From a virus (lineage: Duplodnaviria > Caudoviricetes), in the IMG/VR virus record IMGVR_UViG_3300044716_000140, positions 1,338-65,337 of that record: a stretch of DNA of 64,000 bases. One strand, 5' to 3'. The translations under genes were made by a program, and so were the position numbers. Below the pieces are notes generated by a model that saw only the letters and a program-made list of their open reading frames with translations, was not told where the DNA came from and did no database searches. Each line of letters opens with the position of its first letter. Within the stretch, counting starts at the first letter, position 1. Shown in pieces: positions 18,442-63,113 of the stretch.

Positions 18442-18828
18442 ATGAGAACAAGAATTGAATATAAATACGCAAAACATGGATCAAACGAATTCTATGAATT
18501 GCAAGATTTCGCACAAGAATTTGACCATGAAATCATCGAACATCCGAATATCAATGTTTACGCGCATTATTCTAATGGCAAGTTATTTGGATATTCTGAT
18601 CATGTATTTCTTCCTGTCGTCTATCCTGCCTTTCACCCACAACACACGCGACCACAAGATGTCATCCAAGTGATGAGCGATTGGAAGGCGCACTCGCAAC
18701 TTTCTGGACAACCCGGATACATTGGAGTTCCGCTAATCAATGATCGGCCTAATTTTAACAATGAAATTATGCGTAAATTAGGTTTGACAAAAACAGATCG
18801 TGAAATTTATAGTATGACTAATTTTTAA
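18442..18828 (+). CDS. GNAT-fold (acyltransferase-like) protein
   Basis: VYAHYSNGKLFGY hairpin and IMRKLGLTK resemble GNAT motifs. Position matches T7 gp13, before the ejection proteins. Confidence 0.5.
   Translation: MRTRIEYKYAKHGSNEFYELQDFAQEFDHEIIEHPNINVYAHYSNGKLFGYSDHVFLPVVYPAFHPQHTRPQDVIQVMSDWKAHSQLSGQPGYIGVPLINDRPNFNNEIMRKLGLTKTDREIYSMTNF
18784..18813 (+). promoter_or_regulatory. candidate sigma70-like promoter
   Basis: TTGACA-18 bp-TATAGT, 17 nt before ATG 18831. Confidence 0.45.
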
Positions 18829-18830
18829 TC

Positions 18831-19760
18831 ATGGGTGGATCACAAACAGTTAATGCACAGCAATATTTGAGCAAGCCAGACCCATCGCGTGAATTGGCTA
18901 TTCAAATGGCAATGCAGCAAGCCCAAGCACAGCAACAAGCAACGCAGGCTAAATTGCTTGATGCTTATTCTAAAATGGCTCCAGTGCAGCAAGAATATGA
19001 TGCTCTAAAAGAATCTAAACGACTTGGCGAGCTTGGAATGGCAAATGTTCAGCGTTCCCGCGAAATGGAGCAAATGGTTTCTCCAGAAGCAGCACAAATG
19101 CGACAAGCTCAAGGCGCAGAACTTGCGAGACTTGCAAGCATGGATAATGCAACTCGCTACATGAATGAATGGGCGCGTAATCAAGGTCTTATTCAAGGAT
19201 ACGAAACTGGACTTGGCAATTCCACTATTGGGCAAGCTGCAACATACGATGCAGCATTAAAAGCAAAGGCTAATTACGACCAGCAAAACCTTGCATTGCA
19301 GCAAGAAATTCTTCGTCAAATGCAAGCTCCAGTTGGAGGCATTGATCCATCTACATCAATTTCAGCGCAAGAAGCAAATAAGGCATCTAATTTGCAAGCA
19401 CTTCAAAATTGGCAGAATGCAATGTATGGAAACATTGGAGCATTCAATCAATCTGTTTCTGATCAAATGGCGCAAGCTGGAGCAAACTTTCAAAACCTGC
19501 AACAAAATGCGATGCAAAACAAGTTGAATTACCAAGGTGCATTGCTTGGTCAACAAGCTCAAAACACTGCGGCAGATAGGGCAATGACTGGAGCATACAT
19601 TCAAGCTGGAGGAAGCGTAATTCAAGGTGCTGCTGGTGCTGCTGGTGGCATGGGTGGAGCTGCAAGCAAAGGAATTTCTGGATATGGTGGACAAACATAT
19701 GTTCCAAAAACATCTTCTACTGGAGGGCAATTTTACGCTCCAATTAGCGGAACACCTTAG
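18831..19760 (+). CDS. internal virion/ejection protein, paralog A1
   Basis: Q/A/M-rich helical protein with Gly-rich C-terminus; aligns with 19779 (KPDP, APVGGIDP). Confidence 0.65.
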   Translation: MGGSQTVNAQQYLSKPDPSRELAIQMAMQQAQAQQQATQAKLLDAYSKMAPVQQEYDALKESKRLGELGMANVQRSREMEQMVSPEAAQMRQAQGAELARLASMDNATRYMNEWARNQGLIQGYETGLGNSTIGQAATYDAALKAKANYDQQNLALQQEILRQMQAPVGGIDPSTSISAQEANKASNLQALQNWQNAMYGNIGAFNQSVSDQMAQAGANFQNLQQNAMQNKLNYQGALLGQQAQNTAADRAMTGAYIQAGGSVIQGAAGAAGGMGGAASKGISGYGGQTYVPKTSSTGGQFYAPISGTP

Positions 19761-19778
19761 ATGATGTTGAATTAATTT

Positions 19779-20570
19779 ATGGCTTATCAAAAACCAGACC
19801 CAACAGCAGCACTTCAAGGTTTAGGAATTCAAGCGCAAGGGCAACTTGCGATGTTGCAAAATCAAGCGGGTCTTCTTAAATCCTACGCATCTCAAGCTCC
19901 ATTGATGCAGTCATTTGATGCCGCAAAAACATCTCAGCAAGCGGCAGAGTTTGGAATGGACAATTTGCAACGCTCAAAGGAGTTTGATCGTTTGCTTAAT
20001 CCAGAAATTGCCAAGATGCGCGATGAGCTTGGTTCAAAAGTTGCCGAGGCGACTAACTTGGGCGCAACAAAAACTTGGATGGACAATTGGGCGGTCAAGA
20101 AGGGTTTGATGAACCAATCTGGACTTGGAACTGATAGCTTAATTGGAAGGTCTGCCGTTTACGACCAAGCAACAGAAGCTGGAAGGCAGGCAAGGTTGCA
20201 GAACCTTGCAATTCAACAAGGCTATCTTGCTCAAACTCCAGCACCAATCGGTGGTCTTGATCCAGCATCCATTATTGCCGCTGAACAAGCCGCAAAAGCT
20301 CAGAATCTTGTCGCAATGCAGCAGTATCAAGGAAATGTTATGCAAGGAGCGCAGCAACTTAATCAATCAACATCAGATTGGATTAATTCAAACCTTGGAC
20401 AACTTCAAAAAATCAATCAGAATCAACAACAAAGTCAGCAAAATTACGAGCAAATGATGCTTCAAAACGCTCAACAAAACGCTGCAAGTAGTAACGCTCA
20501 AAAAGGACAAATGATTCAAACTGGAGGTGCGGTTGCTGGTGCTGTTTTGGGTGCTGCTATTATTATTTAA
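19779..20570 (+). CDS. internal virion/ejection protein, paralog A2
   Basis: Paralog of 18831 (KPDP, APIGGLDP); hydrophobic C-terminal GGAVAGAVLGAAIII. Confidence 0.65.
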   Translation: MAYQKPDPTAALQGLGIQAQGQLAMLQNQAGLLKSYASQAPLMQSFDAAKTSQQAAEFGMDNLQRSKEFDRLLNPEIAKMRDELGSKVAEATNLGATKTWMDNWAVKKGLMNQSGLGTDSLIGRSAVYDQATEAGRQARLQNLAIQQGYLAQTPAPIGGLDPASIIAAEQAAKAQNLVAMQQYQGNVMQGAQQLNQSTSDWINSNLGQLQKINQNQQQSQQNYEQMMLQNAQQNAASSNAQKGQMIQTGGAVAGAVLGAAIII

Positions 20571-21406
20571 TGAAACAACTAATAGATACAACAATACATA
20601 AAATAAAAGAATGGAACAAAAGGTGGCCGAGAGCAGTAGTTTTGTGGAGCGGAGGTAAAGACTCTACGGCACTGCTGCACTTGATCAAGTTTGGCGCAGG
20701 AATTGATCTTCCCGTCATCCAGTATCGTGAACCAAAATTCCGTGAACGATATGCTTATTCAGATCGTTTGATCAAAGAGTGGAAACTGGAGGTTTACGAT
20801 TACGCTCCAAGCAAAATAGCTATTGCGGATGGCCCAGATGTTGAAACTGGTGAATTGCGTTTTGATTTCGTGAAATACTATCAATGGGGTCAAGGAACGG
20901 CAGTATGTTTGTCTCTCGGCACTGAGCGGCCAAAAGAAGGAGAAGACTTCTTGTGTGCCGTTACAGACGTTCTACAGCGTCCTACAGGCAGTTTTAATTG
21001 GCCTTGGGGAGCAGTGTATATCGGCACTAAATATAGCGACACAGACTTGATTAAAGGTCATGTTCCGCTTGCGGTTGATATTCGCTATGCTGAAAATTCT
21101 CCAATGTCATTGTATCCAATGCGAGATTGGACTGATGAAGATATTTTCCAATATCTGGAAGATAGCGGAGTTCAGCCAGACCCGACGAGGTATGTCAAGG
21201 ATTACCACAAATGGAAGAACAATCCAGACAAGTCGCTTAATGCAGACTTCTATCCGATTTGCTTCAATTGCGTAAACAGGCATGAAGGAAAGTATGTTGA
21301 TTGTCCGAAGTTAAAAGCTAAAATATCAAATATTTCTCACCTTGCGCCATACGAAGATTTGGTTAATGATGACCTTGGTTTTCGACCTGTGACATGGAAC
21401 AAATAA
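20570..21406 (+). CDS. PAPS-reductase-family PP-loop protein
   Basis: VVLWSGGKDS PP-loop, YPMRDWTDEDIFQYL, C-terminal CFNC...C. Confidence 0.85.
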   Translation: MKQLIDTTIHKIKEWNKRWPRAVVLWSGGKDSTALLHLIKFGAGIDLPVIQYREPKFRERYAYSDRLIKEWKLEVYDYAPSKIAIADGPDVETGELRFDFVKYYQWGQGTAVCLSLGTERPKEGEDFLCAVTDVLQRPTGSFNWPWGAVYIGTKYSDTDLIKGHVPLAVDIRYAENSPMSLYPMRDWTDEDIFQYLEDSGVQPDPTRYVKDYHKWKNNPDKSLNADFYPICFNCVNRHEGKYVDCPKLKAKISNISHLAPYEDLVNDDLGFRPVTWNK

Positions 21407-21690
21407 ATGAATTAGACTGCAAATCATGCGGTGCTTGTTGTTGTTTCAAATGGTCTTGGCCTGTATTGAGACGAGATCGATCAGACGCAGTAAACATACC
21501 TAAAGAAATGGTAAGAACAGATTTTCCGTTGATAAAAACAATTGACAATCGTTGCATTGCTCTTGATGGCAAGGTTGGCAAATCTGTTTGTTGCAAGATT
21601 TACAATGACAGACCAAATTCTTGCAGGCAATTTGAACCCGGAAGCGACCTTTGTATAGAAGCTCGCAAAAAAGTTCTTGAACAAAGTTAA
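21394..21690 (+). CDS. YkgJ-family CxxCxxCC Fe/Zn-cluster protein
   Basis: CKSCGACC...RCIAL...CKIYNDRPNSCRQFEPGSDLC. Confidence 0.9.
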   Translation: MEQINELDCKSCGACCCFKWSWPVLRRDRSDAVNIPKEMVRTDFPLIKTIDNRCIALDGKVGKSVCCKIYNDRPNSCRQFEPGSDLCIEARKKVLEQS

Positions 21691-21726
21691 ATGCCATGCT
21701 AACAACCAACAAATTCTTTTAATTTT

Positions 21727-22206
21727 ATGGGTGGAAGTCGATCAAAACCTAAACAACAGCAACAACAGCAGCAACAGCAATCTTCTGGCCCTGATCCAAT
21801 GATTGCATTTATGTCGATGCAGCAGCAGCAACAAGCCGCTCAAGCTGCCGCTGAAGCTGAACGTCAAAAACAAGCTCAAATTCAAGCTCAACAACAAGCT
21901 GGAATGCAGGCGCAGCAACAAGGTGAAGCTGCTGCCAAAAGCGCATTGAGCGGAATGAATGTTGGTCAGCAAGCGCAAGACCAAGCTACTATGGCCGCTG
22001 CACAAAAAACATCTGCTCCAATAACGGGAGCAACGCCATCTCCCACTGTTGATGTTGGTCAATATCGTCAAGCATCTCTTGGAACAATGGGAGGACAGCA
22101 AGGCGCAGCAGCAATGGCAGCTAATGCTGGAGCAGGCGGAACACAACAAAGAGGCAACCAGTTTCAAGTTCCTGCAACTACTGGTCTAACTTTTGGAGGA
22201 GCATAA
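21727..22206 (+). CDS. Gln/Ala-rich putative ejection protein, paralog B1
   Basis: MGGSRSK start, poly-Q, GPDPM motif, ends TFGGA. Confidence 0.65.
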   Translation: MGGSRSKPKQQQQQQQQQSSGPDPMIAFMSMQQQQQAAQAAAEAERQKQAQIQAQQQAGMQAQQQGEAAAKSALSGMNVGQQAQDQATMAAAQKTSAPITGATPSPTVDVGQYRQASLGTMGGQQGAAAMAANAGAGGTQQRGNQFQVPATTGLTFGGA

Positions 22207-22208
22207 TT

Positions 22209-22724
22209 ATGGGTGGAGGAGGCGGCGGTTCTAAACCAAAAAAACAAACGCAAACTGGGCCTGACCCAATGATGGCGTTTTTAGCTCAAATGCAATCGCA
22301 GCAAGCCGCTCAAGCTGCTGCTGCTGAACGAGCGCAACAAGAAGCGTTGCGTCAGTCTCAAATGACTGCTGGGACTCAACGCCAACAACAATCAGAGCAA
22401 GCCGCAAGCCAAGAACTCGCCACAATGGGTTCAATGCAGTCAATCCGCGATGCCAACGCACTTCTTGCAGCGCAACAAGCGCAAGCAACTGCTGGACAAG
22501 AAGCAACTGGTGGCGGATTTGATTTTAATAAATCGCGTGAAGAAGCACTTGCCAATCTTGGCGCAGCGGCGGGAATGCTGCCAGCTACTGCTGTAAATGT
22601 TCCTATGACATCTGTAAATCCAGCTTTAACAGGTCTTGTAAACCAAGGCGCAGGAGCAGCAGCTAAAAAATCAAATATGTTCTCGCTTCCATCTTCATCT
22701 GACCTTAAATTTGGTGGCGTTTAA
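22209..22724 (+). CDS. Gln/Ala-rich putative ejection protein, paralog B2
   Basis: MGGGGGGSK start, GPDPM motif, ends KFGGV. Confidence 0.65.
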   Translation: MGGGGGGSKPKKQTQTGPDPMMAFLAQMQSQQAAQAAAAERAQQEALRQSQMTAGTQRQQQSEQAASQELATMGSMQSIRDANALLAAQQAQATAGQEATGGGFDFNKSREEALANLGAAAGMLPATAVNVPMTSVNPALTGLVNQGAGAAAKKSNMFSLPSSSDLKFGGV

Positions 22725-22726
22725 TT

Positions 22727-24457
22727 ATGGCAATCTCATACTCTGGCGAAGGATACAAGTTCAATCCTCAATTTGCCAATCTTGGCGCATTGCAAGGATT
22801 GCAACCGCTTGATGTCACTCGCAAAGCTGAATTTCAGCTTCAGCCATTGACATACGCTCCTATTCCATCCTCGCGTCCAGAGATTGTGTCTGAAGGTATC
22901 TCCAAGGGCATTCTTGCTGCTGTTGGCGGCATTACTGAAGGCATTACTGCTAAATACAAGACAGAGCAGGCTAAAGAGGAGAAACTTGCTGAAAGAGCGC
23001 ATGACTTGAAAGTAGCCGCTCTTAAAGCAAAACAATACGATCCATATATTGAAGCACTTAAAACAAAAAAATTAGAGTTAGAAACTGACGCGATTAATAA
23101 ACGAATTGAAGGCTCTGTTCCTGCTGGAGCAAAAAGAAGAATTTATCATTCAATAGATACAGAACCGCTTCCAGAATCAACGGAAACAACTGATGATAAG
23201 ATTGATTTTAATTTAACTCCATCAGGTTTAGAAACTACTTCAATTCAAGGAGGCGATATGTCTGCAAACATTGCAGATCAAGCAAAAGCACTTGAAGGAA
23301 TTTCCGCTGAATATTTAACAGCATCAACTGATTCTGGAGTTGGGCCATTTGCACCAATTGAACAACCTAAATCAATGCAACTTGGAAAGGTTTCAACAAG
23401 TTTGATTTCTCCAGAACAAGAAAAAGAAATTCAATCAAAGTTTGAACCTTACGGAATTCCAAGTGTTCTTGAAAAAGCACCACAAAAAACTTTGTTGTCA
23501 ATTGAAAAAGCTCAACCTAAAGAAGAAGTAAAAATAAAACCTCCTCGCGCTATTGATGTTGATACTGAAGAAGAAGCGCAAGCTGAAGCGTATCGTGACA
23601 TACCCGGTTTTAAAGAAGGAACATATACACAAGAAATTGATGAAAATGGACAACCATTTTATCGCGTTAAAGCTCGTGAAAAAATGAGTCCATCAGAAAT
23701 TGCCGATCTAAAAAAGAAAGAAGCTGAAGCAAGAAAAGCAGAGTTAGAAGGAACTGAAGGGAAAAAAGAAAAACTTCAACAATTTCAACTTCAATCATTT
23801 GAAAATGTAAATCGCGCACAAGAAACGCTTGCTGATTTGGAAAAACATCTTGAAAAAGTTCAAGGAAAACTTGGGCCTGTGTCTGGAAGATTGCTTTCTA
23901 AAAATCCATATGATCCAGATGTTCAACTTTTGCAAAAATATCTTACAGCATTGGTTCCAACAATTGCTCGCGGCGTTTATGGTGAAGTTGGTGTTTTGAC
24001 TCAAGCTGATATTGATAACTATAAACAATTAATTCCAAATATTACTCAAGACCCCGCAAACGCAAAAGCTACATTGGAGTTTTTAAAAAGAGATTTAGAG
24101 AGAGCCAAAAAAACTAAATTAGGTATTTGGGAATCAACAAATTTTGATGTTGAGGGATTAAAAAAATTTACTCAAGTAAGTGAACCAGCAGAAAAAGATC
24201 AACAAGACCAAATTTCAACTCTTTCAATGGAGCTTGAGCAGGTTCCAGTAGATCAAAGAAACTCTCCAGACTTCCTTGCAAAGCGCAAAGTATTATTTGA
24301 TCTTGTTAAACAACAAGAAGAGTTGAAAAAGAAATCACAACCAAAACCAACTCCAACTCCTACTCCAGTTCCACAACCAACATTTCAACCAGCGGTTCCT
24401 CGCCAGACAGTAACAGAATACGGAGAAACAATAGAATCGATGTTTGGAAATAGATAA
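22727..24457 (+). CDS. internal virion/ejection protein
   Basis: 576 aa, helical, with ARGVYGEVGVLTQADI motif; lies before the giant protein. Confidence 0.6.
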   Translation: MAISYSGEGYKFNPQFANLGALQGLQPLDVTRKAEFQLQPLTYAPIPSSRPEIVSEGISKGILAAVGGITEGITAKYKTEQAKEEKLAERAHDLKVAALKAKQYDPYIEALKTKKLELETDAINKRIEGSVPAGAKRRIYHSIDTEPLPESTETTDDKIDFNLTPSGLETTSIQGGDMSANIADQAKALEGISAEYLTASTDSGVGPFAPIEQPKSMQLGKVSTSLISPEQEKEIQSKFEPYGIPSVLEKAPQKTLLSIEKAQPKEEVKIKPPRAIDVDTEEEAQAEAYRDIPGFKEGTYTQEIDENGQPFYRVKAREKMSPSEIADLKKKEAEARKAELEGTEGKKEKLQQFQLQSFENVNRAQETLADLEKHLEKVQGKLGPVSGRLLSKNPYDPDVQLLQKYLTALVPTIARGVYGEVGVLTQADIDNYKQLIPNITQDPANAKATLEFLKRDLERAKKTKLGIWESTNFDVEGLKKFTQVSEPAEKDQQDQISTLSMELEQVPVDQRNSPDFLAKRKVLFDLVKQQEELKKKSQPKPTPTPTPVPQPTFQPAVPRQTVTEYGETIESMFGNR

Positions 24458-24458
24458 A

Positions 24459-27400
24459 ATGGCAAGCATTCTTGACGAAATCAAGGCAGAAGTCGAAGCG
24501 GAACTATCTCAACAACCTCAAGAAGAAAAGCCAGCAAGCGTTCTTGAAGATGTTAAGCAGGAGGTTTCGGCAGAACCACAACAAACTCCAGTTGAAGAAC
24601 CAAAAGCTGATTTTTTTGAGTCTGCCGAAAGGTGGTTAGAACCTGCTCCAACGCAAAAATCCAGCGGAGATATTTTCCTTGGACTTATTTCAAATAAACG
24701 TTCAAACGAGCTTGACGATGAAGAAAAAGGTTTGTTTAACGCATTAAGCGATGAGGAACAATACAAGGTAGCTCAATCTCGCAAAGATATTCCGCTTAAT
24801 GACGCTCAAGCAAGGCGCATTTTTGAGGTTGAAAAGTCAAAGATGCCATCAATTCCTACATCTTGGGAGGATTGGTATAATCTTGGTGGTGATGCTTGGG
24901 ATGTCGTTAAAAATGTTTCAAAGTTAGGTGCAAAAGTTGGACTTGGAGCAGCGGAATTCGGACGCGATGTTGTCAAGGCAACTGACATGACTGTCAGTGA
25001 CGAAGAAGCTGCTAATAACATTAAAAAAGCCAAAGGTTCATTCTACTCGTTCATGGCTCCAGCTTTTGAGATTCCAGAAAGCGTAGCATGGGCAACAGCA
25101 AAAGCACAAGAAGGTGGTTTTGGTTGGGCGGATGCTGCTGGTGAAAAACTTGGCTTGGTAAATCCAGAAGATCGATTTGAACGCTGGAAAGGACGAAGGT
25201 TAGTTTCGCAAGCTCAAGCTGAATACTTCCGTGAACATCCAACTGTTTATAGTAGGATGCTTGATAATCCGCTGGCAAAAGATGCGCTTTCATACATTGC
25301 AAAATCGCAAATGGAATCGCCAGAAGAATTGGCAGTAAGAGACAATATTTCTGTTGAAGAAGCAAAAGCTCAACAGGACGCGATGGCGCGTGAGCAAATT
25401 GATAATTTGACTTCTGATATGGAGTCTGAATTGCCAGAAGAAAATGCTCGCGTAAGAATTGCTGGTGAGTTTTTGCTTCCCGGTGAGCTTGGAATGGGAA
25501 CAATGGGTGCTGTTTCAGCGGTTGCAAAGGCAGGAACAGGCATCGCAAAAGGATTGAAATACATTGGCAAATCCGCTGATGAAATTGCTGAAATCAACAA
25601 GGCAGCACAAACACTGCGAAAGTCTGAATTTGCAGAAATGCTTAGAAAGCGCACAGAGCGAGCAGAAGCGGTTGCTCAAGGTGCAGGCAAGATTGAAAAA
25701 GCGATTGAAAGATTTAAACCTGCCGCTGAAAAAGTAAATAAAGTTCTTGGTAACATTACCGCGCCTGTTCTTGGTGGCGTTGCTGGCTATAGCGTTTACG
25801 AAGAATCGCCAATGACTGGTATTTTGAGTGGCGTTCTTGGTGGAGTTGCTGCGAGAGGTGTATTGAAAGGAACGAAGGTTGGTCTTGAAATTCCCACATT
25901 TGTTCGTGAGGTTGCAGAAGCTCGTAAGGTTGCACCTCTTGGCAAGACATTTGAGACACTCGGCAAATCCGCTGAAGGATCGGCATTGAAGGCTAAAATT
26001 CTTTCCCGTGGAGGAAAGACGATTGATAACATCCTTTCCAACTCCGTTGAGTATGCAAAAACTGGAATTCATGGAACAACGCTTGCTCTTGCTACTGGAG
26101 CTTTGGAGTCCGCTGATCCAGAGGAGATGAAGCAAATGCTCGCTGATGGTCTTGCAATCACTCTTGGTGGACGCGCATTGCAGCATATCAAGGGCAAGAT
26201 GATGGGCAATGACCCTATCATTGAGCAACGCGAGCGTATTTCAGACGATTCTCGCATCCATCGCAGGTATCAAGAAGCTGATCCAGAAACCCAAGCAAAC
26301 TTGGATCAAATTTCTGACTTTGATAATGCTATTTCTGCAAGAGAAACAAAGCTGAACGAAAGTGAATCTGACCTTGCAAACTTGATGGCAGCTTACAAGG
26401 GTTCAGCGGAAGATGCCAGAAAAATTAAACTTGCTCAATCGGAAGTAGAAAAAAACAAGATTGCACTTGATCAAGTAAAACGCGCCAATGTGCAAACGCG
26501 CAATGAATTTGGCAGGGAGTTTTTGAAGACATACGCAAACCTTCAAGACATTACCAATGGTGTTATGAAGAGTGGTCAGAACAATGTTGGATTCAATGTT
26601 CTTTCGACCGATCAAATCTATCAAAAGTTGCGTAATGATCCAGCGAACAGCAATGTTCCAGACGCTGATCTTGCACAGATGGCAAGCCAAGCTGGATTTT
26701 ACTCAAATCCCGCACAACAAGGGCTTGCATTTGACCGCAGAAAACCATCGATTGTTATCAATGCAGATTCCATTCGTGAGCGCATCAAGTTGTTTGGTGA
26801 ATCGCCAACGGAAGCACTGGTTCACGAAACATCGCACTTCATGGATGTTGTTCCAGAGTTCCAAGAAGCACTTGCTCCAGTGCGTTCAATGCTTTTCCAA
26901 AACGAAATCCGCGATGCCGCTGGAAACATCAAGGCTACAACTTCTGGTATTTTCTCCAAGGCAAAACTCGTTGAACTTTTTAATGATGGATACCTTCGCC
27001 ATTTAGACCCGCAAGGAAGAGAAGCATTTTCCAAGCTGAACAAACTTTGGGATGAATCCCGTGGTCAGTTGGATGAAAACAAAGTTGCCAACTACATGAA
27101 GAGCGAAGTCATGGCAGACTTGCTTGGAGAAGTGTCCAGCAGGCATCTTGCAAATGATTTGGATTCCGCAACACTTGCCATGTGGGATCGTGCAAGGATC
27201 AAAGCAAAGAAAAACTTGCTGGATCGTGCTATCAATCGTTTTTACGGACTTGGAGGACGAGGTGACATTGTTACTGCCGCTAATACACGCGCAGAATTCC
27301 CGCCAGAAGCGATGGCGGCAGCAAGAGATGCAATGCGCCAGATCGTTTCTTTAAATGGCGAAATTTCGCCTCCAGCGCAAGAAGCTGATATGCCTGCTAT

Positions 27401-30400
27401 CAGCAAGGCGCAGATGATGAAAAACTCTGCGTTGATCGAGCGTTTCGGAAAAGATTCTCCGCTATTCAAAACAGAGTTTAAAGTCAAGGTATTTGACAAG
27501 GACGGCAATCAGGTTGGCGAGTCAATGCCAGTGACAACGCCAAATCCAAGGGAAGGAACATTCCAAAGCACTGATGTTGGAATGAAGAAACTTTCTGGAT
27601 ATGGCGACATTCCAGCGGAAGCGCAAGGACTGCAAGTTCCCGAAGGCGGAACTCTTGTTGTCTCGCGTGATTTGGTCATGGAACCAGATGGGGTAACTCC
27701 TGTCATGTATGACGCGAAGGACGCAAAGAAAATTGATGCAGACCGCAAAAAGCTGATTACCGAAGCACTGGATACTGATGATTACGGGACACCTAATCGT
27801 TTTGAGCCAGTAGCAGAAGGCTCAGAAACATATCGCGGCACATTTACTCCAGCGCAAATTCAAGCAATCAAGGATATGCCAGAGAGTCTTGTGCCAAGGA
27901 CGCTCAAAGAGCATATGCTGAAAGTTAATGATGCCATTGCTCGCGGAGATGGAACAAGGTTTATTGTGGATTACGCAGCGGTAATGAATGACAAGGGCAA
28001 GTATCAAGCATTCTCGCCAAAGATGTATGACCTTGTGCCAATCGGAATGCACTTGTCTAAAAAAGGCAATTTCCTTGTAACAACGATTTCTGTTGGACGC
28101 ATATTTGATAAAATGCGCTTGTGGAATGAGCGTATGCCGGGTCGTTTGCGTTTCTGGGACAACAATCTTGAGCGCACATTTGATGATTTCTCGAAGTATT
28201 TGAATAACTGGCAACAAGGCAAAGCTGGAGAAACTGGTCTTGATGCCGATCCTCAAGTTGCATTGCAGAAGAAGAACATTTTTAACGACCTTCTGAACCT
28301 TTACGACAAAGGAACTGAATTTACAAACCTTGATAGGACAACTATTCCTCGCAAAAAAGGTGATCCACGGAACAAGGATGCTAACCGCACGATCATGTCA
28401 ATTCGCGTTGACCACATTGCTGAATTGATTCCAAACGAGAACGCAACAAAACTTCCAGTCAATTACGGATTTGCCAAAATCAATTTCATGCCAGAACGCA
28501 TGGAAGGTGAAGTTCCAACGCAGGAGCCTACTATTGGAGAAAAAACTGAAATTTATCCAAAGATAGGTAGACCTACTATCTCAGAAAAACCGAAAAGTTC
28601 GGAGATGATAGGTGCTGACACAATCAAACCCGCTGATCTTCAAACAAGTGCAAAACCAGAAGCTGACTCAGTAATCAAGCCATTCTCCAACGTTTTAGTG
28701 TCATCCGCTGGACTCATCAACTTCCTTCCTGCTTATCACGGCACTCCATTTGAAGTGGACAAGTTCAAGTTGGCAAACATCGGCACTGGCGAAGGAGCGC
28801 AGGCGTATGGATGGGGGTTGTATTTTGCGCAGGCAAGAAAGGTTGCTGAAGAATATGCAAGAGTATTAGCTAATAGAGATTTAACTGGATACAAAAATGC
28901 ACAATTAAATGCAAAAGATATTGTTTCAAGGTTAGGCGGCAATGCTGAATATGCAGCAGAAATATTGCGAGATCAGTTACAATCAATTCCAGAAAATTCA
29001 TTAAATTTTACAAGAATTTCTGATACATTAAAAATGATCGAAACAGGAGAGTATGCAAAAGACCTTGAAGCACAGGGCAACCTCTACAAAGTCGATATCG
29101 ATGTGAAAGACGAAGACTTGCTTGATTGGGATAAACCATTGAGTGAGCAACCAGAAAGTGTTCGTGATGCGATTACTGCAATTATCAATGAGCGCATTCC
29201 AAAAGAAATTGCTGATTCAGCTATTGAAAACATGGAAGCTAAAGGAGGTTCGCTCTACGCTTTGATTTCAGATAGCTTTGGTGAAAGCGCACAGGGAACT
29301 CCAGAGAAGCGAGCATCTGAAGCATTGCTTGAAGCAGGAATTCCCGGCATCCGCTACCTTGATCAACAAAGCAGAGCAACAACAGGTGGGAATATTTTAG
29401 GTGTTTGGCAAGGCGAACAACGCATGATGGAAGATAAGGGTAGGGGGAAATGGTTTGCTCGCGTTCAAGTTAAAGATCGCAGTGTTGCATTTCAAAACGC
29501 TCCAACTTCAGTAAGCACTACAAGTATGCCTTTCAATACAAGAGAAGAGGCGCAAGCGTGGGCTGAAAAGAAAATATCTGAAGGCACATACAACTATGTC
29601 GTCTTCGATGAGAATCTAATCACCATTCTTGACAAGAACGATAAGCCTGTTGCTGGCGAGTTGCCGACAAAGCAACCATTGGGTGGTATTCAGTTCATGC
29701 CGCAACGTCCAGTTGGTAAAACTCAAGCTGGATATGATTACACATATTTAGACCAAGCAATGGCAAGAGGCAAAGATGGAAGGGTTGCATTAACGCGACC
29801 TGTTCGTGCAGATGAAGCATTGCCGTTGCTATCACAACGAATTCCAATAACTGAACAGGTTGATAAAGATTCGTTTGATTATACAAGACCAGCGGAAGTT
29901 GTATTTTATCAACATGAAAATAAACCTGTATCGTTTAAATACGATCCAGAGCTTATTGAAAAACCTGTTTTTAAAGACATAGCTACAGAACACGCAGGAA
30001 AAAATGTTCAGCTTGCAATGGCAGACAGGCAAACTGCCACAGGTGGAGATATGGGAGGAATTATCTTCCCGTGGTTGAAATCAAATGCTAATGCAATTAT
30101 TATTGGTGATGATGGAATAAAATATAGGGCTGTTTGGGGTAATAATGAATGGAAACCAGTGTTTTCCATGAAAAATAAAAACATCAATTTCAATGCGTCT
30201 AATTTATTGACATATTTGATGGGTGAAGATGCTCATGCATCGAATACAAGGGAAGTAAGGGTAATTTCAAATGAGATTGAAAATTCAAAAATATCAAGAA
30301 ATCAAAAAGATTTATTTTTAATACTTGCTAATATTGGAGTTAAAAAACAGAAAAGAGCAGATCAACAAAAAAATATAAAATCTGCAAATGATAGTATTGA

Positions 30401-31211
30401 AGAAGCGAAAAAACTTACCCAAGAATCAACTGATAAAGAAGAAATTAAAAAATTAAAAGATTTAATTAAATCAAAAGAAAAAGATATAGAGATAGCTCAA
30501 TCAAAATTTGATAAATTTATTGAAACTTCTGATGAAGAATTAATTAAACAAGTAATAACAAAATACAAAACTTCTTACACAAGATTTAAGGGCGGAACTG
30601 GCAGCGAAAACAATTTCATCAAAAATCAAAAAGCATTGAATGAATTTAAACAAACAAAATCATTCAAAAATCTGCTAAAATTAGTTAAAAATAAACAACT
30701 AATAAGTTTGGATGATACTTTCAAGGGAAGAAAAGCATCAATTGCTCAAATTTTAGGACTTACTATTGATGATTTCAATGTTGATAATATTCTTAATGAA
30801 ACAATGGATTTCAAAAACGGAAGAATTAATCAGATTGTTGGCAGCGTTGAACTTTCCAGAAATCCAGATTTGATGGCAGTGTATTTAGGTGATGATCCTA
30901 ATCAAGCAAAACGCATGACTGCACAAGAGGCAAGGGCGGCAGCGCAATTGAAATCTAATCCAAACTTTGTTCCGCACGAAGCATATTCTTGGGCAATGCT
31001 TGGGCCAGTTGATGGAAATTATTTTTTGAATTCAAATCCAAAAACACATTTGGAATACTTCCCTGATTTCAAAGAAGCATACGCAAACATTCAAGACGAT
31101 GCTGATAAAAAGAAAAAAATTCTTGAAGGAAACGAAACGACGCTGATGGGTGCAATAAGAGACAACACTCAAATGCCTCTTGCAATGCCTGCAATTTCTG
31201 CTAAAAAATAA
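24459..31211 (+). CDS. giant polyvalent ejection protein (~2250 aa) with zincin HEXXH and ADP-ribosyltransferase-like domains
   Basis: LVHETSH near 26820; AYHGTPFEVDKF...IGTGEGAQAYGWGLYF...GIPGIRYLD...NYVVFD at 28731-29640. The ORF track gives TTG 24444; ATG 24459 is more likely. Confidence 0.75.
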   Translation: MASILDEIKAEVEAELSQQPQEEKPASVLEDVKQEVSAEPQQTPVEEPKADFFESAERWLEPAPTQKSSGDIFLGLISNKRSNELDDEEKGLFNALSDEEQYKVAQSRKDIPLNDAQARRIFEVEKSKMPSIPTSWEDWYNLGGDAWDVVKNVSKLGAKVGLGAAEFGRDVVKATDMTVSDEEAANNIKKAKGSFYSFMAPAFEIPESVAWATAKAQEGGFGWADAAGEKLGLVNPEDRFERWKGRRLVSQAQAEYFREHPTVYSRMLDNPLAKDALSYIAKSQMESPEELAVRDNISVEEAKAQQDAMAREQIDNLTSDMESELPEENARVRIAGEFLLPGELGMGTMGAVSAVAKAGTGIAKGLKYIGKSADEIAEINKAAQTLRKSEFAEMLRKRTERAEAVAQGAGKIEKAIERFKPAAEKVNKVLGNITAPVLGGVAGYSVYEESPMTGILSGVLGGVAARGVLKGTKVGLEIPTFVREVAEARKVAPLGKTFETLGKSAEGSALKAKILSRGGKTIDNILSNSVEYAKTGIHGTTLALATGALESADPEEMKQMLADGLAITLGGRALQHIKGKMMGNDPIIEQRERISDDSRIHRRYQEADPETQANLDQISDFDNAISARETKLNESESDLANLMAAYKGSAEDARKIKLAQSEVEKNKIALDQVKRANVQTRNEFGREFLKTYANLQDITNGVMKSGQNNVGFNVLSTDQIYQKLRNDPANSNVPDADLAQMASQAGFYSNPAQQGLAFDRRKPSIVINADSIRERIKLFGESPTEALVHETSHFMDVVPEFQEALAPVRSMLFQNEIRDAAGNIKATTSGIFSKAKLVELFNDGYLRHLDPQGREAFSKLNKLWDESRGQLDENKVANYMKSEVMADLLGEVSSRHLANDLDSATLAMWDRARIKAKKNLLDRAINRFYGLGGRGDIVTAANTRAEFPPEAMAAARDAMRQIVSLNGEISPPAQEADMPAISKAQMMKNSALIERFGKDSPLFKTEFKVKVFDKDGNQVGESMPVTTPNPREGTFQSTDVGMKKLSGYGDIPAEAQGLQVPEGGTLVVSRDLVMEPDGVTPVMYDAKDAKKIDADRKKLITEALDTDDYGTPNRFEPVAEGSETYRGTFTPAQIQAIKDMPESLVPRTLKEHMLKVNDAIARGDGTRFIVDYAAVMNDKGKYQAFSPKMYDLVPIGMHLSKKGNFLVTTISVGRIFDKMRLWNERMPGRLRFWDNNLERTFDDFSKYLNNWQQGKAGETGLDADPQVALQKKNIFNDLLNLYDKGTEFTNLDRTTIPRKKGDPRNKDANRTIMSIRVDHIAELIPNENATKLPVNYGFAKINFMPERMEGEVPTQEPTIGEKTEIYPKIGRPTISEKPKSSEMIGADTIKPADLQTSAKPEADSVIKPFSNVLVSSAGLINFLPAYHGTPFEVDKFKLANIGTGEGAQAYGWGLYFAQARKVAEEYARVLANRDLTGYKNAQLNAKDIVSRLGGNAEYAAEILRDQLQSIPENSLNFTRISDTLKMIETGEYAKDLEAQGNLYKVDIDVKDEDLLDWDKPLSEQPESVRDAITAIINERIPKEIADSAIENMEAKGGSLYALISDSFGESAQGTPEKRASEALLEAGIPGIRYLDQQSRATTGGNILGVWQGEQRMMEDKGRGKWFARVQVKDRSVAFQNAPTSVSTTSMPFNTREEAQAWAEKKISEGTYNYVVFDENLITILDKNDKPVAGELPTKQPLGGIQFMPQRPVGKTQAGYDYTYLDQAMARGKDGRVALTRPVRADEALPLLSQRIPITEQVDKDSFDYTRPAEVVFYQHENKPVSFKYDPELIEKPVFKDIATEHAGKNVQLAMADRQTATGGDMGGIIFPWLKSNANAIIIGDDGIKYRAVWGNNEWKPVFSMKNKNINFNASNLLTYLMGEDAHASNTREVRVISNEIENSKISRNQKDLFLILANIGVKKQKRADQQKNIKSANDSIEEAKKLTQESTDKEEIKKLKDLIKSKEKDIEIAQSKFDKFIETSDEELIKQVITKYKTSYTRFKGGTGSENNFIKNQKALNEFKQTKSFKNLLKLVKNKQLISLDDTFKGRKASIAQILGLTIDDFNVDNILNETMDFKNGRINQIVGSVELSRNPDLMAVYLGDDPNQAKRMTAQEARAAAQLKSNPNFVPHEAYSWAMLGPVDGNYFLNSNPKTHLEYFPDFKEAYANIQDDADKKKKILEGNETTLMGAIRDNTQMPLAMPAISAKK

Positions 31212-31577: not shown

Positions 31578-31676
31578 ATGACGATTCACACTTGGACAAT
31601 TTTGGTGATTGCTACGGCATCGTTTATTGCTGGTGGTTTCTGCATTGCCGCTGCTTGCTGGTGGGACGATAAATGA
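31578..31676 (+). CDS. 32-aa single-TM peptide
   Basis: MTIHTWTILVIATASFIAGGFCIAAACWWDDK; ATGA overlap with the next gene. Confidence 0.5.
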   Translation: MTIHTWTILVIATASFIAGGFCIAAACWWDDK

Positions 31677-32302
31677 TCACGCTTAAAAATATTGATCCAG
31701 TTGCCATGCGGTATGCGACAACTGGTGACTGGGAATGGTTGCCTAATGGTCATCTCAAATGTTCTGCTGCCGATTACGGCAACGAAGATGGCGCATTTCT
31801 CGTCAGCCTGCATCAGATGATAGAAGGGTGGCTATGCAACAAAGCTGGAATCCGTGAGGATGAGGTTAGCAATGATGTTGCCGAGCTTCAGACGGCAACG
31901 CAGATTGAGCGCATTGTGTGTGAGGCGGCAGGAATTGATTGGGACGAGCATAACAAGTGGGTGCTGCGAGCAAGCGACGAGGTCGAGCGCAAGCAAGGCG
32001 ATGAAGTTCCAGCAATCCTACTCAACGGGCCAAGATTTTGGGCTGAGTTGCACTTGCTTGGATTGCGTCACAAGTCAGGAAAAAATATGACTGGCTGGTT
32101 GAATGATTGGCGCGATTCACTTCCGTTCAACGGATGCCCATGCAAGGAACATCTTGACGAGTGGATGAGCGAAAATCCTCCAGACTGGAACAGATTTTTT
32201 GAGTGGGGTATTGACCTGCACAACGCAGTAAATATGCGGATTGGCAAGCCAACAATGGATGTTGAGAATGCGAAAGAATTATGGATGCAACGACACTTCT
32301 AA
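31673..32302 (+). CDS. two-domain protein with C-terminal Erv1/ALR-like FAD sulfhydryl oxidase domain
   Basis: GPRFWAELH...LPFNGCPCKEH...FFEWGIDLHNAVNMRIGKP matches the Erv pattern GxxxWxxLH / C..CxxH / HNxVNxxxGK. Confidence 0.8.
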   Translation: MITLKNIDPVAMRYATTGDWEWLPNGHLKCSAADYGNEDGAFLVSLHQMIEGWLCNKAGIREDEVSNDVAELQTATQIERIVCEAAGIDWDEHNKWVLRASDEVERKQGDEVPAILLNGPRFWAELHLLGLRHKSGKNMTGWLNDWRDSLPFNGCPCKEHLDEWMSENPPDWNRFFEWGIDLHNAVNMRIGKPTMDVENAKELWMQRHF

Positions 32303-42432: not shown

Positions 42433-43548
42433 ATGAGATTCCATATATTAGGACTACCGCACACTGTTACCAGCAAAGAGTTTAACGCCTGCGCTTACAC
42501 ACAGAAAGTAGTTAAGTTCGGGAAGATGATGACATCCCGTGGGCATGAAGTCATCCACTATGGGCATGAGGATAGCGTTCTGGATTGCACGGAACACGTT
42601 AGCGTATTGACCAACGATGACTTTGCCAAAAGCTATGGTTCACATGACTGGCGCAAGACGTTCTTCAAGTTTGATACCAGCGACCACGCCTACCAGACCT
42701 TCTTCACCAATGCCATCCGTGAAGTAGGCAAGCGCAAGCGCAAGCATGACTTCATTTTGCCATTCTGGGGTAGCGGTGTTCGTCCAGTCTGCGACGCGCA
42801 TCTAGACCTTATCTGCGTTGAACCCGGCATAGGCTACGCAGGAGGTCACTGGGCGCGTTGGAAGGTGTTTGAATCATATGCCATATACCATGCGTATTGT
42901 GGATTATCTGCCGTTGGTTCATGCAAGCAGGATTGGTATGATGTCGTCATCCCGAATTATTTTGATGTCGCAGATTTCGACTTCAATAGCGCGAAGGAAG
43001 ATTATTTCCTCTACCTTGGCAGGGTCTACAGCGGCAAAGGTGTTGATGTAGCTATACAGGCTACGGAACGAGCAGGAGTCAAGCTGGTCATCGCGGGACA
43101 GAAAGAGGAAGGATACAAGCTGCCTTCGCACGTCGAGTATGTAGGATACGCTGACGTTCCAACGCGCAAGAAGCTCATGGCAGGCGCAAGAGCATCGTTC
43201 CTACCATCGATGTATGTTGAGCCATTCGGAGGTGTCCAGATCGAGAACCTGCTATCAGGCACGCCTACCATCACCACTGATTGGGGTAGCTTCGCGGAAA
43301 ACAACCTGCATGGTATCACTGGCTATCGATGCCGCACTATGGGTGACTTTGTGGATGCTATCAAAAACATTGATTGCATCAACCCGTGGGACTGCAAGCG
43401 ATTCGGCAACAACTTCACGCTGGAGAAGGTTGCACCAATGTATGAGAAGTATTTCAGCGATGTCCTTGATGTCTACGAAGGCGCAGGATGGTATGCTGAT
43501 GGCAACGGAATTGATTCCATGACGAGGTTCTATCCAAGCATTATATGA
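42433..43548 (+). CDS. GT-B (GT4-like) glycosyltransferase
   Basis: FLYLGRVYSGKGVDVAI...LPSMYVEPFGGVQIE...GTPTITTDWG. Confidence 0.92.
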   Translation: MRFHILGLPHTVTSKEFNACAYTQKVVKFGKMMTSRGHEVIHYGHEDSVLDCTEHVSVLTNDDFAKSYGSHDWRKTFFKFDTSDHAYQTFFTNAIREVGKRKRKHDFILPFWGSGVRPVCDAHLDLICVEPGIGYAGGHWARWKVFESYAIYHAYCGLSAVGSCKQDWYDVVIPNYFDVADFDFNSAKEDYFLYLGRVYSGKGVDVAIQATERAGVKLVIAGQKEEGYKLPSHVEYVGYADVPTRKKLMAGARASFLPSMYVEPFGGVQIENLLSGTPTITTDWGSFAENNLHGITGYRCRTMGDFVDAIKNIDCINPWDCKRFGNNFTLEKVAPMYEKYFSDVLDVYEGAGWYADGNGIDSMTRFYPSII

Positions 43549-44102
43549 GCGACTACGCATTTGAATCGGCATACTGGGGAGATTGCTGCAATACATTTGA
43601 CGAGGATCAGAAGCACTATGTCTATGCTCGTTACATGGGCTTGAAGCACTATGTCTACTCGTTTGATGTAGCAGGCGCGAGGATCATTGACATTGGAGGC
43701 GGCCCAACATCAATGCTTCTCAAGACGATCAACCTTGCGCCTCGTTCGCTTGTAGTTGACCCGTTGCATTATCCAAATTGGACATATGACAGGTATTCCG
43801 CGAAAGGCATTGATTCGTTGGTTGTGCGTGGTGAAGACATCTACGAAGAAGGATACGATGAGTGCTGGATTTACAACTGTCTTCAGCACACAGATGACCC
43901 TGAGCGTATCATAGAAAACGCATTAAACGCAGCAAAGACAATACGATTGTTTGAGTGGATTGACATCCCGCCGCACGATGGTCATCCAATTGAGTTGACA
44001 AAGGAGAAGCTGGACGCATGGATTGGCAAGGAGGGCCAGACGATTCAGCTTGCGGAGTCAGGATGTTTTGGTAAAGCATATTTCAACACATACACAAAAT
44101 GA
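43545..44102 (+). CDS. class I SAM-dependent methyltransferase-like protein
   Basis: IIDIGGGP motif I, VVDP, YDECWIYNCLQHTDDP. Confidence 0.8.
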   Translation: MSDYAFESAYWGDCCNTFDEDQKHYVYARYMGLKHYVYSFDVAGARIIDIGGGPTSMLLKTINLAPRSLVVDPLHYPNWTYDRYSAKGIDSLVVRGEDIYEEGYDECWIYNCLQHTDDPERIIENALNAAKTIRLFEWIDIPPHDGHPIELTKEKLDAWIGKEGQTIQLAESGCFGKAYFNTYTK

Positions 44103-44566
44103 GTAATACAACACCATACCAGCAGTTCGTGAACGCAATCGTCAAGCCCGGAGCGGAAATCGTTCGGCAGTTGACACCACAGCAAGCGCATATGTTGCAC
44201 ATGGCGGTTGGAGTATCTGGCGAGGCAGGAGAGCTTCTTGATGCCGTCAAGAAGCATTGCGTCTACCAGAAGCAAATCGACATTCCGCACATTATCGAGG
44301 AGGCAGGAGACATCTTGTTTTATCTTACTGGACTTTTGAATGAGCTTGACTTGTCACTTGAAGATTGCATTAACGCGAACAAGGAGAAGTTAAGCAGACG
44401 CTATGCGAGCGGCAGCTACAGCAACGAGCAGGCTATTGCAAGGGCAGACAAGGTTGAGGAAGTCAAGCAAGAAAAAACTATTCCCGACATTGAGTCTGAC
44501 TTTGATGACGTGAAGATCGAGCGAGTCTGCAAACTTGATGATGAAGCCTGCGAGTCTTGCCAATGA
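44099..44566 (+). CDS. MazG-like NTP pyrophosphohydrolase
   Basis: GVSGEAGELLDAVKK...EEAGDILFY...NKEKLSRRY. Confidence 0.9.
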   Translation: MSNTTPYQQFVNAIVKPGAEIVRQLTPQQAHMLHMAVGVSGEAGELLDAVKKHCVYQKQIDIPHIIEEAGDILFYLTGLLNELDLSLEDCINANKEKLSRRYASGSYSNEQAIARADKVEEVKQEKTIPDIESDFDDVKIERVCKLDDEACESCQ

Positions 44567-44877
44567 AAAATATATTACTTGCATCTTGCTTGGCCTTGTG
44601 CGCGTGTGGAACGGCAAAGGAAACATACACGGAGAAAAGAACCTTGACATATCCGAAGGGCACTACGCCGAACTTGAAGGAAATGTATCTGCGTGAAGAC
44701 AAGACTCCAGATTCCGCTCCAGTGGTTGAGCAGAACACATACACTGGCGTTGCTATTCCAGAACCTGTCCCCCCTATTTACAGCGATTATGATTTGCTTC
44801 CGAGCAATTCATTGGAGGATGAAAACGAGCGGTTGCGTTTGCTTGCGATAAACAAAATCTTGAAAGGAATGCAATGA
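44563..44877 (+). CDS. putative lipoprotein
   Basis: MKNILLASCLALCAC lipobox. Confidence 0.6.
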   Translation: MKNILLASCLALCACGTAKETYTEKRTLTYPKGTTPNLKEMYLREDKTPDSAPVVEQNTYTGVAIPEPVPPIYSDYDLLPSNSLEDENERLRLLAINKILKGMQ

Positions 44878-45266
44878 GTGATTGGGATGAATACGCACTT
44901 GGAATTGCCGAGGTAGTTGCGAAGAAGAGTAAAGACCCGTGGAGGCAGGTTGGTGCTGTGCTGTTGCGGCATGACAACACGATTGCGGCTTGTGGCTACA
45001 ATGGATTTCCAGCGCATATGGTGGAAGACTGGTCTGATCGTGAGCGCAGGAGGAACTACGTTGTCCATGCGGAGCAGAACGCATTGCGCCATGTCAAGCC
45101 AAATGAGTGTCGCTTGATTGCGTCTACGACACTGCCATGCAATAATTGTTTAAAATCTCTTGCATCGTATGGAATCAGGCGTATTGTCTACCGCGAAACC
45201 TATCCAACGGATGAATCGACAATTCTTCTCGCGGCAGATTTCGGAATAGAATTAATAAATATATGA
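44874..45266 (+). CDS. dCMP deaminase
   Basis: SKDPWRQVGA, GYNG, HAEQNA, PCNNC. Confidence 0.92.
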   Translation: MSDWDEYALGIAEVVAKKSKDPWRQVGAVLLRHDNTIAACGYNGFPAHMVEDWSDRERRRNYVVHAEQNALRHVKPNECRLIASTTLPCNNCLKSLASYGIRRIVYRETYPTDESTILLAADFGIELINI

Positions 45267-48154: not shown

Positions 48155-48398
48155 ATTTAACTTGCCAGAGCAGGAGTGGGATTTTAAATACGCTTGTGCT
48201 GGATTGGATGCGCTATTGACACTGAACGACATTGATCAGGAGCTTCGGTCAGCGGTGCGTTACCATACTGGCGAATTTACGCATTACATTGACGAGGAAA
48301 CTGGCGAGCGGAAGTTTTGCTGCAATGATACATTGCATCATGTTCGCAAGGTTATAAACGAAATGGTTCACGAACGAAAATTGCCAGAACTAATTTGA
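48132..48398 (+). CDS. conserved phage hypothetical protein
   Basis: KATLEFNLPE...IDQELRS motif. Confidence 0.65.
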   Translation: MEAKATLEFNLPEQEWDFKYACAGLDALLTLNDIDQELRSAVRYHTGEFTHYIDEETGERKFCCNDTLHHVRKVINEMVHERKLPELI

Positions 48399-51388: not shown

Positions 51389-51973
51389 ATGGCAAAACCT
51401 ATTATTGGAATGATACCTCCCGGTGGATGGCACTACATGGAAGGAGATGTGAAATTGACATCTCATTCTTATGAAAATCTTTTGACAACAGTTCAAAATT
51501 ATCGTGCGGAAAATCATTTGCCAATTGGCGATGTCGAGGGCGATGTAAGCAGTTATCTCTGTTCTAACTGGCCTAATTTTTGTCATGGAGTTGACATGGT
51601 TGTTGTGACTTCAGTCCATCCAGAAACAAGTCAGCAAACTTTGTTAAACGACATCACTGTTTGGGCAAAAAACATTTTGAATTCTGGCAAGAAAAATTTG
51701 CTCGTTTCTGACGAATTGGCTGAACAACGAGCGCAAGTTTGCAAGGCTTGTCCAGAAAATAAATCGTGGAAATCGGGTTGTGCTTCATGCGTTTCTGCTG
51801 CTGAACGTGTGTCTGCCAGTATCAGAAATGGCAAAGATACAGAGACATCAGTAAAACTTGGAGGTTGCAATGTAATGCGACACGATAATCGCAGTGCAGT
51901 ATTCATGTTCAAAAAACAATTTTCATCAGCATCAAATACACCTAAAGATTGTTGGATCAATTTGAATAAATAA
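51389..51973 (+). CDS. Cys-rich head-module protein
   Basis: RAQVCKACPEN...GCASC...GGCNV...DCW; lies between terL and portal. Confidence 0.7.
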   Translation: MAKPIIGMIPPGGWHYMEGDVKLTSHSYENLLTTVQNYRAENHLPIGDVEGDVSSYLCSNWPNFCHGVDMVVVTSVHPETSQQTLLNDITVWAKNILNSGKKNLLVSDELAEQRAQVCKACPENKSWKSGCASCVSAAERVSASIRNGKDTETSVKLGGCNVMRHDNRSAVFMFKKQFSSASNTPKDCWINLNK

Positions 51974-63112: not shown

Positions 63113-63113
63113 T

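Follow-up and report, generated by a model that had tools for sequence, protein, structure and literature searches.

The 64,000-nucleotide stretch of tailed-phage DNA analysed here, hereafter the window, encodes at 31673-32302 a two-domain protein whose C-terminal half is an Erv/ALR-type domain with a CxC motif where Erv enzymes carry the redox pair CxxC. The window comprises bases 1338-65337 of a 65,337 bp record in IMG/VR (IMGVR_UViG_3300044716_000140) which has a completeness rating of 100%. We consider it somewhat probable that the product is a cytoplasmic, homodimeric flavin thiol oxidase of the Erv type that employs its CxC pair and acts on substrates made late; the binding of flavin adenine dinucleotide (FAD), the redox activity of the CxC, the dimer, the timing and the substrates are what we infer from sequence, structure prediction and gene order. 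The open reading frame (ORF) and the features of its Erv domain are as follows.

31673..32302, + strand: the whole ORF, with an ATG start and 209 amino acids (aa) plus stop, made up of an N-terminal domain and the Erv/ALR domain.
32006..32299, + strand: helical-bundle domain of the FAD-binding Erv/ALR type, residues 112-209, recognised by PF04777, Foldseek, VIA-align and a family profile searched against the PDB.
32039..32053, + strand: W123-A-E-L-H127, the helix 1 motif of the Erv domain, with W123 and H127 invariant in alignment A1 (20 relatives of the fused protein).
32135..32143, + strand: C155-P156-C157, the CxC replacing the CxxC redox pair, invariant in A1.
32219..32233, + strand: H183-N-A-V-N187, the HNxVN motif, invariant in A1 and followed by R189, G191 and K192.

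The ORF is a genuine gene and is strongly constrained by purifying selection. It has 35 homologues at 45-95% identity, all 35 of them matched by PF04777, and in close pairs the Erv half evolves with a dN/dS of ~0.03 and the N-terminal half with 0.08-0.16. The assignment of residues ~112-209 to the Erv/ALR fold is solid, since hidden Markov model (HMM) match, family profile, predicted fold, invariant motifs and dN/dS all agree. PF04777 (Evr1_Alr) matches residues 122-204 with an E-value of 1.4e-8 and 35.5 bits, above its curated cut-off of 27.6; four relatives score 29.8-35.0 bits and the genome-level match 37.9 bits. A phmmer search with the single sequence reaches human ALR and pB119L of African swine fever virus (ASFV) at E ~1e-4, and a profile built from 30 Erv-only relatives retrieves 15 Erv sequences from the PDB at E 6.5e-13 to 1.7e-6, with 3gwl as the best. 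The AlphaFold2 model, built on 20 relatives and with a mean predicted local distance difference test (pLDDT) of 86, superposes in VIA-align on six solved Erv entries (3gwl, 3w4y, 4e0i, 1jr8, 3td7 and 3gwn) with Z 10.9-12.8, the next rows reaching 5.5 at most. The best Foldseek match is again 3gwl (E 3.6e-4, template modelling score 0.76 on the target), and at least 17 Erv chains are returned with a probability of 1.00.

The motifs point the same way. W123, H127, H183, N184, V186, N187, R189 and G191 are invariant in 20/20 sequences of A1; in the 30 Erv-only relatives the helix 1 histidine is invariant, the tryptophan is kept in at least 90% and the same flavin-side positions are conserved. The HNxVN motif aligns with the HNEVN, HNKVN or HNNVN of solved Erv enzymes, and the invariant residues as a whole with the corresponding motifs of ALR, Erv1 and pB119L. 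In Erv enzymes the flavin-side residues (W..H, HNxVN and the next basic residue) contact the FAD. A first-pass annotation of the window had named these FAD-binding motifs (as W, H, HN.VN and GK), the CPC in place of CxxC, a fused N-terminal domain with a degenerate HExxE-like motif and the lack of a signal peptide, all of which were borne out; inspection by eye finds no hydrophobic segment of signal type at the N-terminus MITLKNIDPVAMRY.... The Evr1_Alr search and the structure prediction that it had proposed as checks both came out in favour of its family assignment.

The active-site motif differs from that of the canonical members of the family. C157 aligns with the second cysteine of the CxxC in ALR, Erv1 and pB119L, and C155 lies one residue closer. 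A census of 174 alignable Erv-domain stretches found CxC in 44 of the 45 that form the closest set, and among the 129 others 81 with CxC, 42 with CxxC and 6 with neither, the flavin-side cysteine being aligned. The middle residue of the CxC varies, with S, A, R, P, K and D the commonest. Of 80 IMG/VR loci located with an Erv-only alignment, 33 have CxC and 47 CxxC. On a FastTree phylogeny computed without the motif columns, which for a domain of 90 residues is a weak tree, 23 changes of spacing suffice, where shuffled labels take 34.4 on average and never fewer than 27; the spacing is clustered on the tree but apparently labile. Since the two spacings interleave, CxC and CxxC are perhaps functionally interchangeable, for which the sequences give a hint. 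CxC disulfides are redox-competent elsewhere in the Erv pathway, because the shuttle pair of Erv2 is a CGC and Mia40, the partner of Erv1, uses a redox-active CPC.

Structure prediction suggests that the protein forms a homodimer. Two copies co-folded with FAD gave an ipSAE interface score of 0.89, compared with 0.18 for the best of three controls, and the three dimer runs had at least 97% of their contacts in common, with a partner pLDDT of at least 91. In the calibration of the tool the mark was reached by 20/30 one-chain pairs and by 1/23 single-chain proteins, counts that are rough here because our own alignment was used and FAD was included in the co-fold. The predicted interface comprises strand 1-6 and helices of the N-terminal domain. 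The Erv domain contributes its residues 120-149 and 193-209, and its first two helices take part. Erv dimers have already been solved, so the pass may in part reflect a memory of known complexes.

The N-terminal domain (N-domain) is of a different nature, and its features are the following.

31673..31996, + strand: N-domain, residues 1-108, predicted by AlphaFold2 as three strands followed by helices, with pLDDT mostly 85-94.
31811..31825, + strand: HQMIE (H47-E51), corresponding to the family motif HExxE, with Q in the second position in the clade of the window.

The N-domain also exists on its own, as a small protein of 95-190 aa in many viral clusters (P0043, P0047, P0048 and others), and it has no family in Pfam, PHROG or NCBIfam. 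An alignment of 26 sequences, in P0047 numbering, shows R14, G19, D20, E50 and E53 as invariant and H49, C57, H92 and E99 in at least 90%, which makes up H-E-x-x-E and a later histidine. In the clade of the window the first glutamate of the HExxE is replaced by glutamine and a segment of ~18 residues with the conserved histidine is missing; another subclade has lysine at the first-glutamate position. In a fold search of the PDB selecase scored Z 5.5 with the window model and 5.3 with a model of the stand-alone P0047 (pLDDT 95.9), and the top rows for both consisted of selecase, YbeY, abylysin, CapP, PprI and SPRTN at Z 4.6-5.5. These are weak scores (Z 4-5.5 for the likeness to minimal zincins as a whole), in the range that the tool grades as possibly a common arrangement, and Foldseek searches with the N-domain models had no match at E <=0.001. 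The nearest named clusters in the Atlas are Peptidase_M78 (0.79) and SprT-like (0.77). The N-domain may thus weakly resemble the minimal zincins, which is a lead and not an assignment; the zincin motif HExxH is replaced by HExxE in the family, and the window has HQMIE without the conserved-histidine segment. C55 and C83 were considered as a shuttle pair and dropped, since P0033 and several stand-alone homologues lack C83. A canonical HExxH mini-zincin motif, HELIH, is found elsewhere in the window, in a 98-aa ORF at 4613-4909 (+). Distant relatives (L017, L018, L022 and L024) have homologues of this ORF a few genes beyond the Erv gene, on its downstream side, and the family of the ORF is present in 4/7 genomes with the Erv domain, 1/2 with the N-domain only and 0/7 with neither.

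The genomic position of the Erv gene is strictly conserved. Its upstream neighbour in the window is the last giant gene of the virion block.

24444..31211, + strand: gene before the Erv gene, in the window as in related loci, encoding a cysteine-free virion-block protein of 2255 aa.

In 24/24 related loci the Erv gene stands behind this giant gene, directly or after an ORF of ~430 aa, and the position is kept even where the downstream replication module has been inverted or replaced. In one locus (L010) the Erv gene is followed by convergent genes, so that the structural strand block closes with it and a few small ORFs. Judging from this gene order the Erv gene is probably expressed late and may have a morphogenesis-time role. 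Erv-only CxC genes in unrelated phage contigs are located 2-3 kb downstream of tape-measure genes (L157, L213 and, more weakly, L183), and the one in L213 lies just upstream of the gene for the large terminase (TerL). Ten large ORFs that neighbour Erv-only genes yielded four structural or packaging matches, two to nucleic-acid enzymes and four without a match. The ORF of ~430 aa (8573-9859 in L004) separates the giant gene from the Erv gene in many relatives and is absent from the window. It occurs in 4/7 Erv-domain genomes, 2/2 N-domain-only genomes and 0/7 genomes with neither, and has no Pfam or PDB sequence match.

The distribution of the gene was assessed in 21 near-complete relatives, namely all records of at least 57 kb among 80 capsid loci, each of which is at least 91% complete. 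Their capsid proteins are 84-99% identical and, with presence counted by both the family profile and PF04777, six have the Erv domain (one of them in two copies), two the N-domain only and 13 neither. In trees of the portal (from a careful search) and of the 16075-type protein (from a quick search) the Erv-domain and N-domain-only genomes group together, the latter nested inside the former; the position of G003 was disregarded, as it sits on a very long branch that is probably due to crude ORF calls. Presence and absence follow the clades and therefore amount to about one gain and one loss, some two evolutionary events. In two genomes (G018 and G019) the N-domain stands alone at the same genomic place. 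A 66 kb relative (G011, the record behind L081) has two non-identical copies of the fused gene, at 30-728 and 62561-63268, near both of its ends, which could be paralogues or the assembly of two variants.

The first-pass annotation had explained the gene by a phage with cysteine-rich structural proteins. The individual features that it listed are all present: the 397-aa major capsid protein (59762-60955) has eight cysteines that include C5 and C394 near its two ends, the 4922 ORF begins with MSCGC, the 18179 ORF contains CLPCVVC, the 51389 ORF has eight cysteines and the 16075 ORF ends in ...NPC. The generalisation drawn from them does not hold. Overall cysteine content is ordinary, with 249/20322 residues (1.23%) over the + strand ORF set and 2.0% in the capsid protein, and cysteine is absent altogether from seven proteins (3861 aa) encoded in the virion-internal block at 18442-31211. 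These cysteine-free proteins measure 128, 309, 263, 159, 171, 576 and 2255 aa, and related genomes, whether or not they carry the Erv gene, encode homologues with 0-2 cysteines (0-4 in the small 18442 family); as a guess, the proteins may have to cross the tail in unfolded form. The 194-aa protein at 51389-51973 (+), encoded between the terminase and portal genes, keeps 8-10 cysteines in all compared genomes, and its CKAC-x12-CASC looks like a zinc ribbon. Of 81 capsid homologues, 80-81 retain each of the cysteines C5, C78, C107, C352, C385 and C394.

The mechanism that we propose for the phage protein follows from the Erv family. A substrate dithiol would reduce the C155-C157 disulfide, the electrons would pass from this pair to the FAD, and the FAD would be re-oxidised by O2 or another acceptor, so that disulfides would arise de novo in the infected cell by the action of the enzyme. 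The N-domain, a phage module, supplies much of the interface in the dimer model and is for that reason most simply read as a dimerisation or substrate-docking module. The most likely substrates would be phage proteins made late, since the gene ends the structural block and is probably expressed late. The capsid protein is evidently independent of the Erv gene, because the same capsid occurs in genomes without it.

Several results weigh against a late-acting thiol oxidase and have to be set beside the evidence in its favour. A scan for promoters and terminators found no more sites than in shuffled sequences, so the late timing is read from the gene order. No thioredoxin-like or other partner protein was found among the 20 ORFs scanned, i.e. 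10 ORFs of the window (one of them taken from a relative) and 10 cysteine-containing ORFs. The CPC stands where the CxxC beside the flavin is expected, and the protein is therefore filed as an Erv variant and not as a canonical member; no Erv enzyme is known, from a search that was not exhaustive, to work with a flavin-adjacent CxC. The Erv domain is missing from 15 of the 21 near-complete relatives, two lineages retaining the N-domain only, from which it follows that Erv activity is dispensable for this type of virion. Finally, virion cysteine counts do not track the gene. The capsid protein has 6-8 cysteines in total both with and without the Erv gene, and in 16 fully fetched genomes (seven with the Erv domain, two with the N-domain only and seven with neither) the counts with and without it are 9-13 versus 9-12 in the 16075 family and 8-10 versus 8-9 in the 51389 family.

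These counts bear most directly on the idea of a dedicated disulfide pathway for cysteine-rich capsid and tail proteins, required for virion assembly, which we regard as unlikely. Such a pathway would suit the way in which the gene closes the structural block in all 24 loci, and also the six invariant or nearly invariant capsid cysteines. Erv enzymes play such a role in nucleocytoplasmic large DNA viruses and baculoviruses (a point also made in PMC13576161), and disulfide-linked phage virions are known from cryo-electron microscopy, those named in PMC13576161 being Q-beta, Milano, PD491P1 and T1-like tail tubes. Against this, just six of the 21 near-complete relatives with the same capsid have the Erv domain, capsid and virion cysteine counts are alike with or without the gene, and whole-genome cysteine content is 0.87-1.20% with and 0.90-1.20% without it, the two groups overlapping fully. 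Fibre proteins with 21-27 cysteines even occur in the clade that lacks the gene, and some of the cysteines look zinc-binding. The same cysteine-bearing capsid and virion are made without the Erv gene, even if only about two evolutionary events underlie the comparison, and the tie between gene and cysteine-rich capsid, for which the first-pass annotation had proposed a correlation across relatives as a check, is not supported. Of its broader proposal, a phage-encoded cytoplasmic disulfide pathway, the Erv/ALR enzyme assignment stands (by HMM, fold, conservation and dimer prediction) and the link to the capsid falls.

Host takeover is another possibility, and to our minds a poor bet: the oxidase would be an auxiliary enzyme that drains or re-sets host thioredoxin, glutathione or thiol-switched enzymes, for instance, should the host be a cyanobacterium, its light/dark thiol switches, instead of acting on phage proteins. 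Thiol-based redox switches provide the biological background for such a role. Like many auxiliary genes, the Erv gene is accessory and confined to certain clades, it borders on the small-ORF and replication region, and the genome offers a weak host clue in a Synechococcus-phage-like glycosyltransferase, as well as a MazG gene; yet inversion of the replication module leaves the gene in the structural strand block. Least probable, and in our estimate improbable, is that the Erv domain does not generate disulfides, its CxC serving small-molecule thiol, metal or persulfide chemistry instead, or the domain being a flavin-binding or structural dimer scaffold while the N-domain and the ~430-aa neighbour form the functional unit. 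The unusual spacing of the family-defining pair would find an explanation here, and so would the solitary N-domain at the same place in G018 and G019 and the co-distribution of the ~430-aa ORF with the N-domain (4/7, 2/2 and 0/7, as given above). This is difficult to square with the invariance of both cysteines and all flavin-side motifs under strong purifying selection, and with the interleaving of CxC and CxxC in the family. Moreover, the N-domain of the window has lost conserved residues, the Erv half is the better conserved of the two, and the ~430-aa ORF is missing from the window. An Erv-type thiol oxidase with late substrates hence remains our preferred account of the gene.

The phage itself belongs to a lineage that is common in the environment. 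Its genes run on one strand and include those for a tail spike, fibre-like proteins and an internal-virion-protein-like product, for RecT, an exonuclease, a replication initiator and the DnaB helicase, and for a homing endonuclease and a large terminase that carries an insert of intein size. The 397-aa protein at 59762-60955 was named by the Atlas feature search alone, with a score of 0.97 to major capsid clusters of the N4-gp56 type; Pfam, PHROGs, a PDB sequence search and tblastn did not identify it. A tblastn search of 50,697 deposited phage records gave no match to either the portal or the capsid protein, so the lineage is uncultivated, and megablast with 20 kb of the window found no match among deposited phage records either. 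Its capsid protein recurs in at least 156 IMG/VR stretches, the best 80 of them at 84-99% identity. The DNA datasets that contain the stretch are labelled as lake, freshwater, wetland and soil metagenomes, and no RNA dataset is among those listed. A glycosyltransferase (42433-44566, +) is 72% identical to genes of Synechococcus myophages, and 51 of the 53 matching records are Synechococcus phages, a likeness that hints weakly at a cyanobacterial host. The phrog_3603 and MazG genes adjoin it, and a dCMP deaminase is encoded at 44874-45266. A scan for tRNA genes found none. The large terminase (48395-51238, +) measures 947 aa compared with ~620-630 aa in most relatives, hence the intein-sized insert; in G012 and G014 it has 964 aa. 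A 484-aa protein (2162-3616, +) clusters with the large terminase, probably via a common intein or endonuclease part. Inside the structural gene block, 20570-21690 (+) holds a gene for a PAPS-reductase-like protein (PF01507) and one for a 98-aa CxxCxxCC protein with ten cysteines (PF03692).

Beyond this lineage, HMMER over 1.84 billion cluster representatives returned 1189 proteins of the family at E <=0.001, and most of the 150 listed among them are 90-170 residues long. At least 408 contigs of IMG/VR harbour a member. Deposited sequences tell a different tale: tblastn with the fused protein and four Erv-only relatives against the 50,697 deposited records found no phage match, the only match being Mollivirus, a eukaryotic giant virus. 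PHROGs has no family for the fused protein or 10 Erv-only relatives, and NCBIfam none for the eight proteins tested. Absent in these searches from deposited phage isolates, PHROGs and NCBIfam, the family has escaped annotation. In cellular genomes a pattern scan with P0051 alone found no relative, and one with A1 found only two loci (L255 and L256), both from Alienimonas sp. DA493; these scans are limited in reach and do not establish rarity in bacteria. The two loci are planctomycete scaffolds with Erv-domain matches of 35-37% identity. A literature search, with supplements outside its range, found no paper that describes a phage Erv enzyme. The Discussion of PMC13576161 (September 2026) considers such disulfide machinery as not described in bacteriophages, and a passage of PMC10598087 assigns PF04777 to eukaryotes, a few bacterial groups and 'some dsDNA viruses'.

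It is conceivable, at slightly less than even chances, that tailed phages, namely this abundant freshwater lineage and hundreds of uncultivated others, encode flavoenzymes that generate disulfides de novo, many of them with a CxC beside the flavin instead of the CxxC. If true, this would be the first disulfide-forming machinery encoded by phages, and disulfides would be made in the reducing cytoplasm of bacteria during infection, as is the case with giant viruses of eukaryotes. A phage Erv enzyme would offer a direct and testable route to disulfides in that compartment, and a flavin-adjacent CxC would extend the known catalysis of Erv enzymes. A small cytoplasmic oxidase could in addition help to produce disulfide-bonded proteins in bacteria. 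Being large in viral metagenomes and absent from isolate collections, the family is a worthwhile subject for simple biochemistry.

The phage protein combines traits of several known systems. Its N-domain may share with the minimal zincins (selecase, abylysin, SprT/SPRTN, IrrE/PprI/CapP and YbeY) a three-stranded sheet and a long helix with H-E-x-x-acidic, and differs from them in its HExxE (HQxxE in the window) instead of HExxH and in the lack of a Pfam match. The fusion of an Erv domain to a second module recalls QSOX (Z 5.2-5.3) and mimivirus R596 (3td7/3gwn; Z 10.9-11.1), in which Erv is joined to an ORFan domain according to the part of PMC3509050 that deals with it. The extra domain of the phage protein is N-terminal and unrelated to either, being neither thioredoxin-like nor akin to the ORFan domain of R596. 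With mitochondrial Erv1/ALR and Erv2 of the endoplasmic reticulum the protein has in common the Pfam family and the fold, and a homodimer is predicted for it. The flavin-adjacent pair of those enzymes is a CxxC, their CxC or CPC being located elsewhere or on another protein; the structural disulfide of ALR is not conserved in the phage protein, and no flexible shuttle tail is evident. The closest counterpart is pB119L of ASFV (3gwl), at ~25-28% identity. That enzyme has a CxxC (aligned as PCT--RC), carries no extra N-domain and comes from a eukaryotic virus, but it is the best structural match (Z 12.8, root-mean-square deviation 2.1 over 93 residues) and shares the helical bundle, the W..H and HNxVN motifs and the character of a cytoplasmic viral enzyme.

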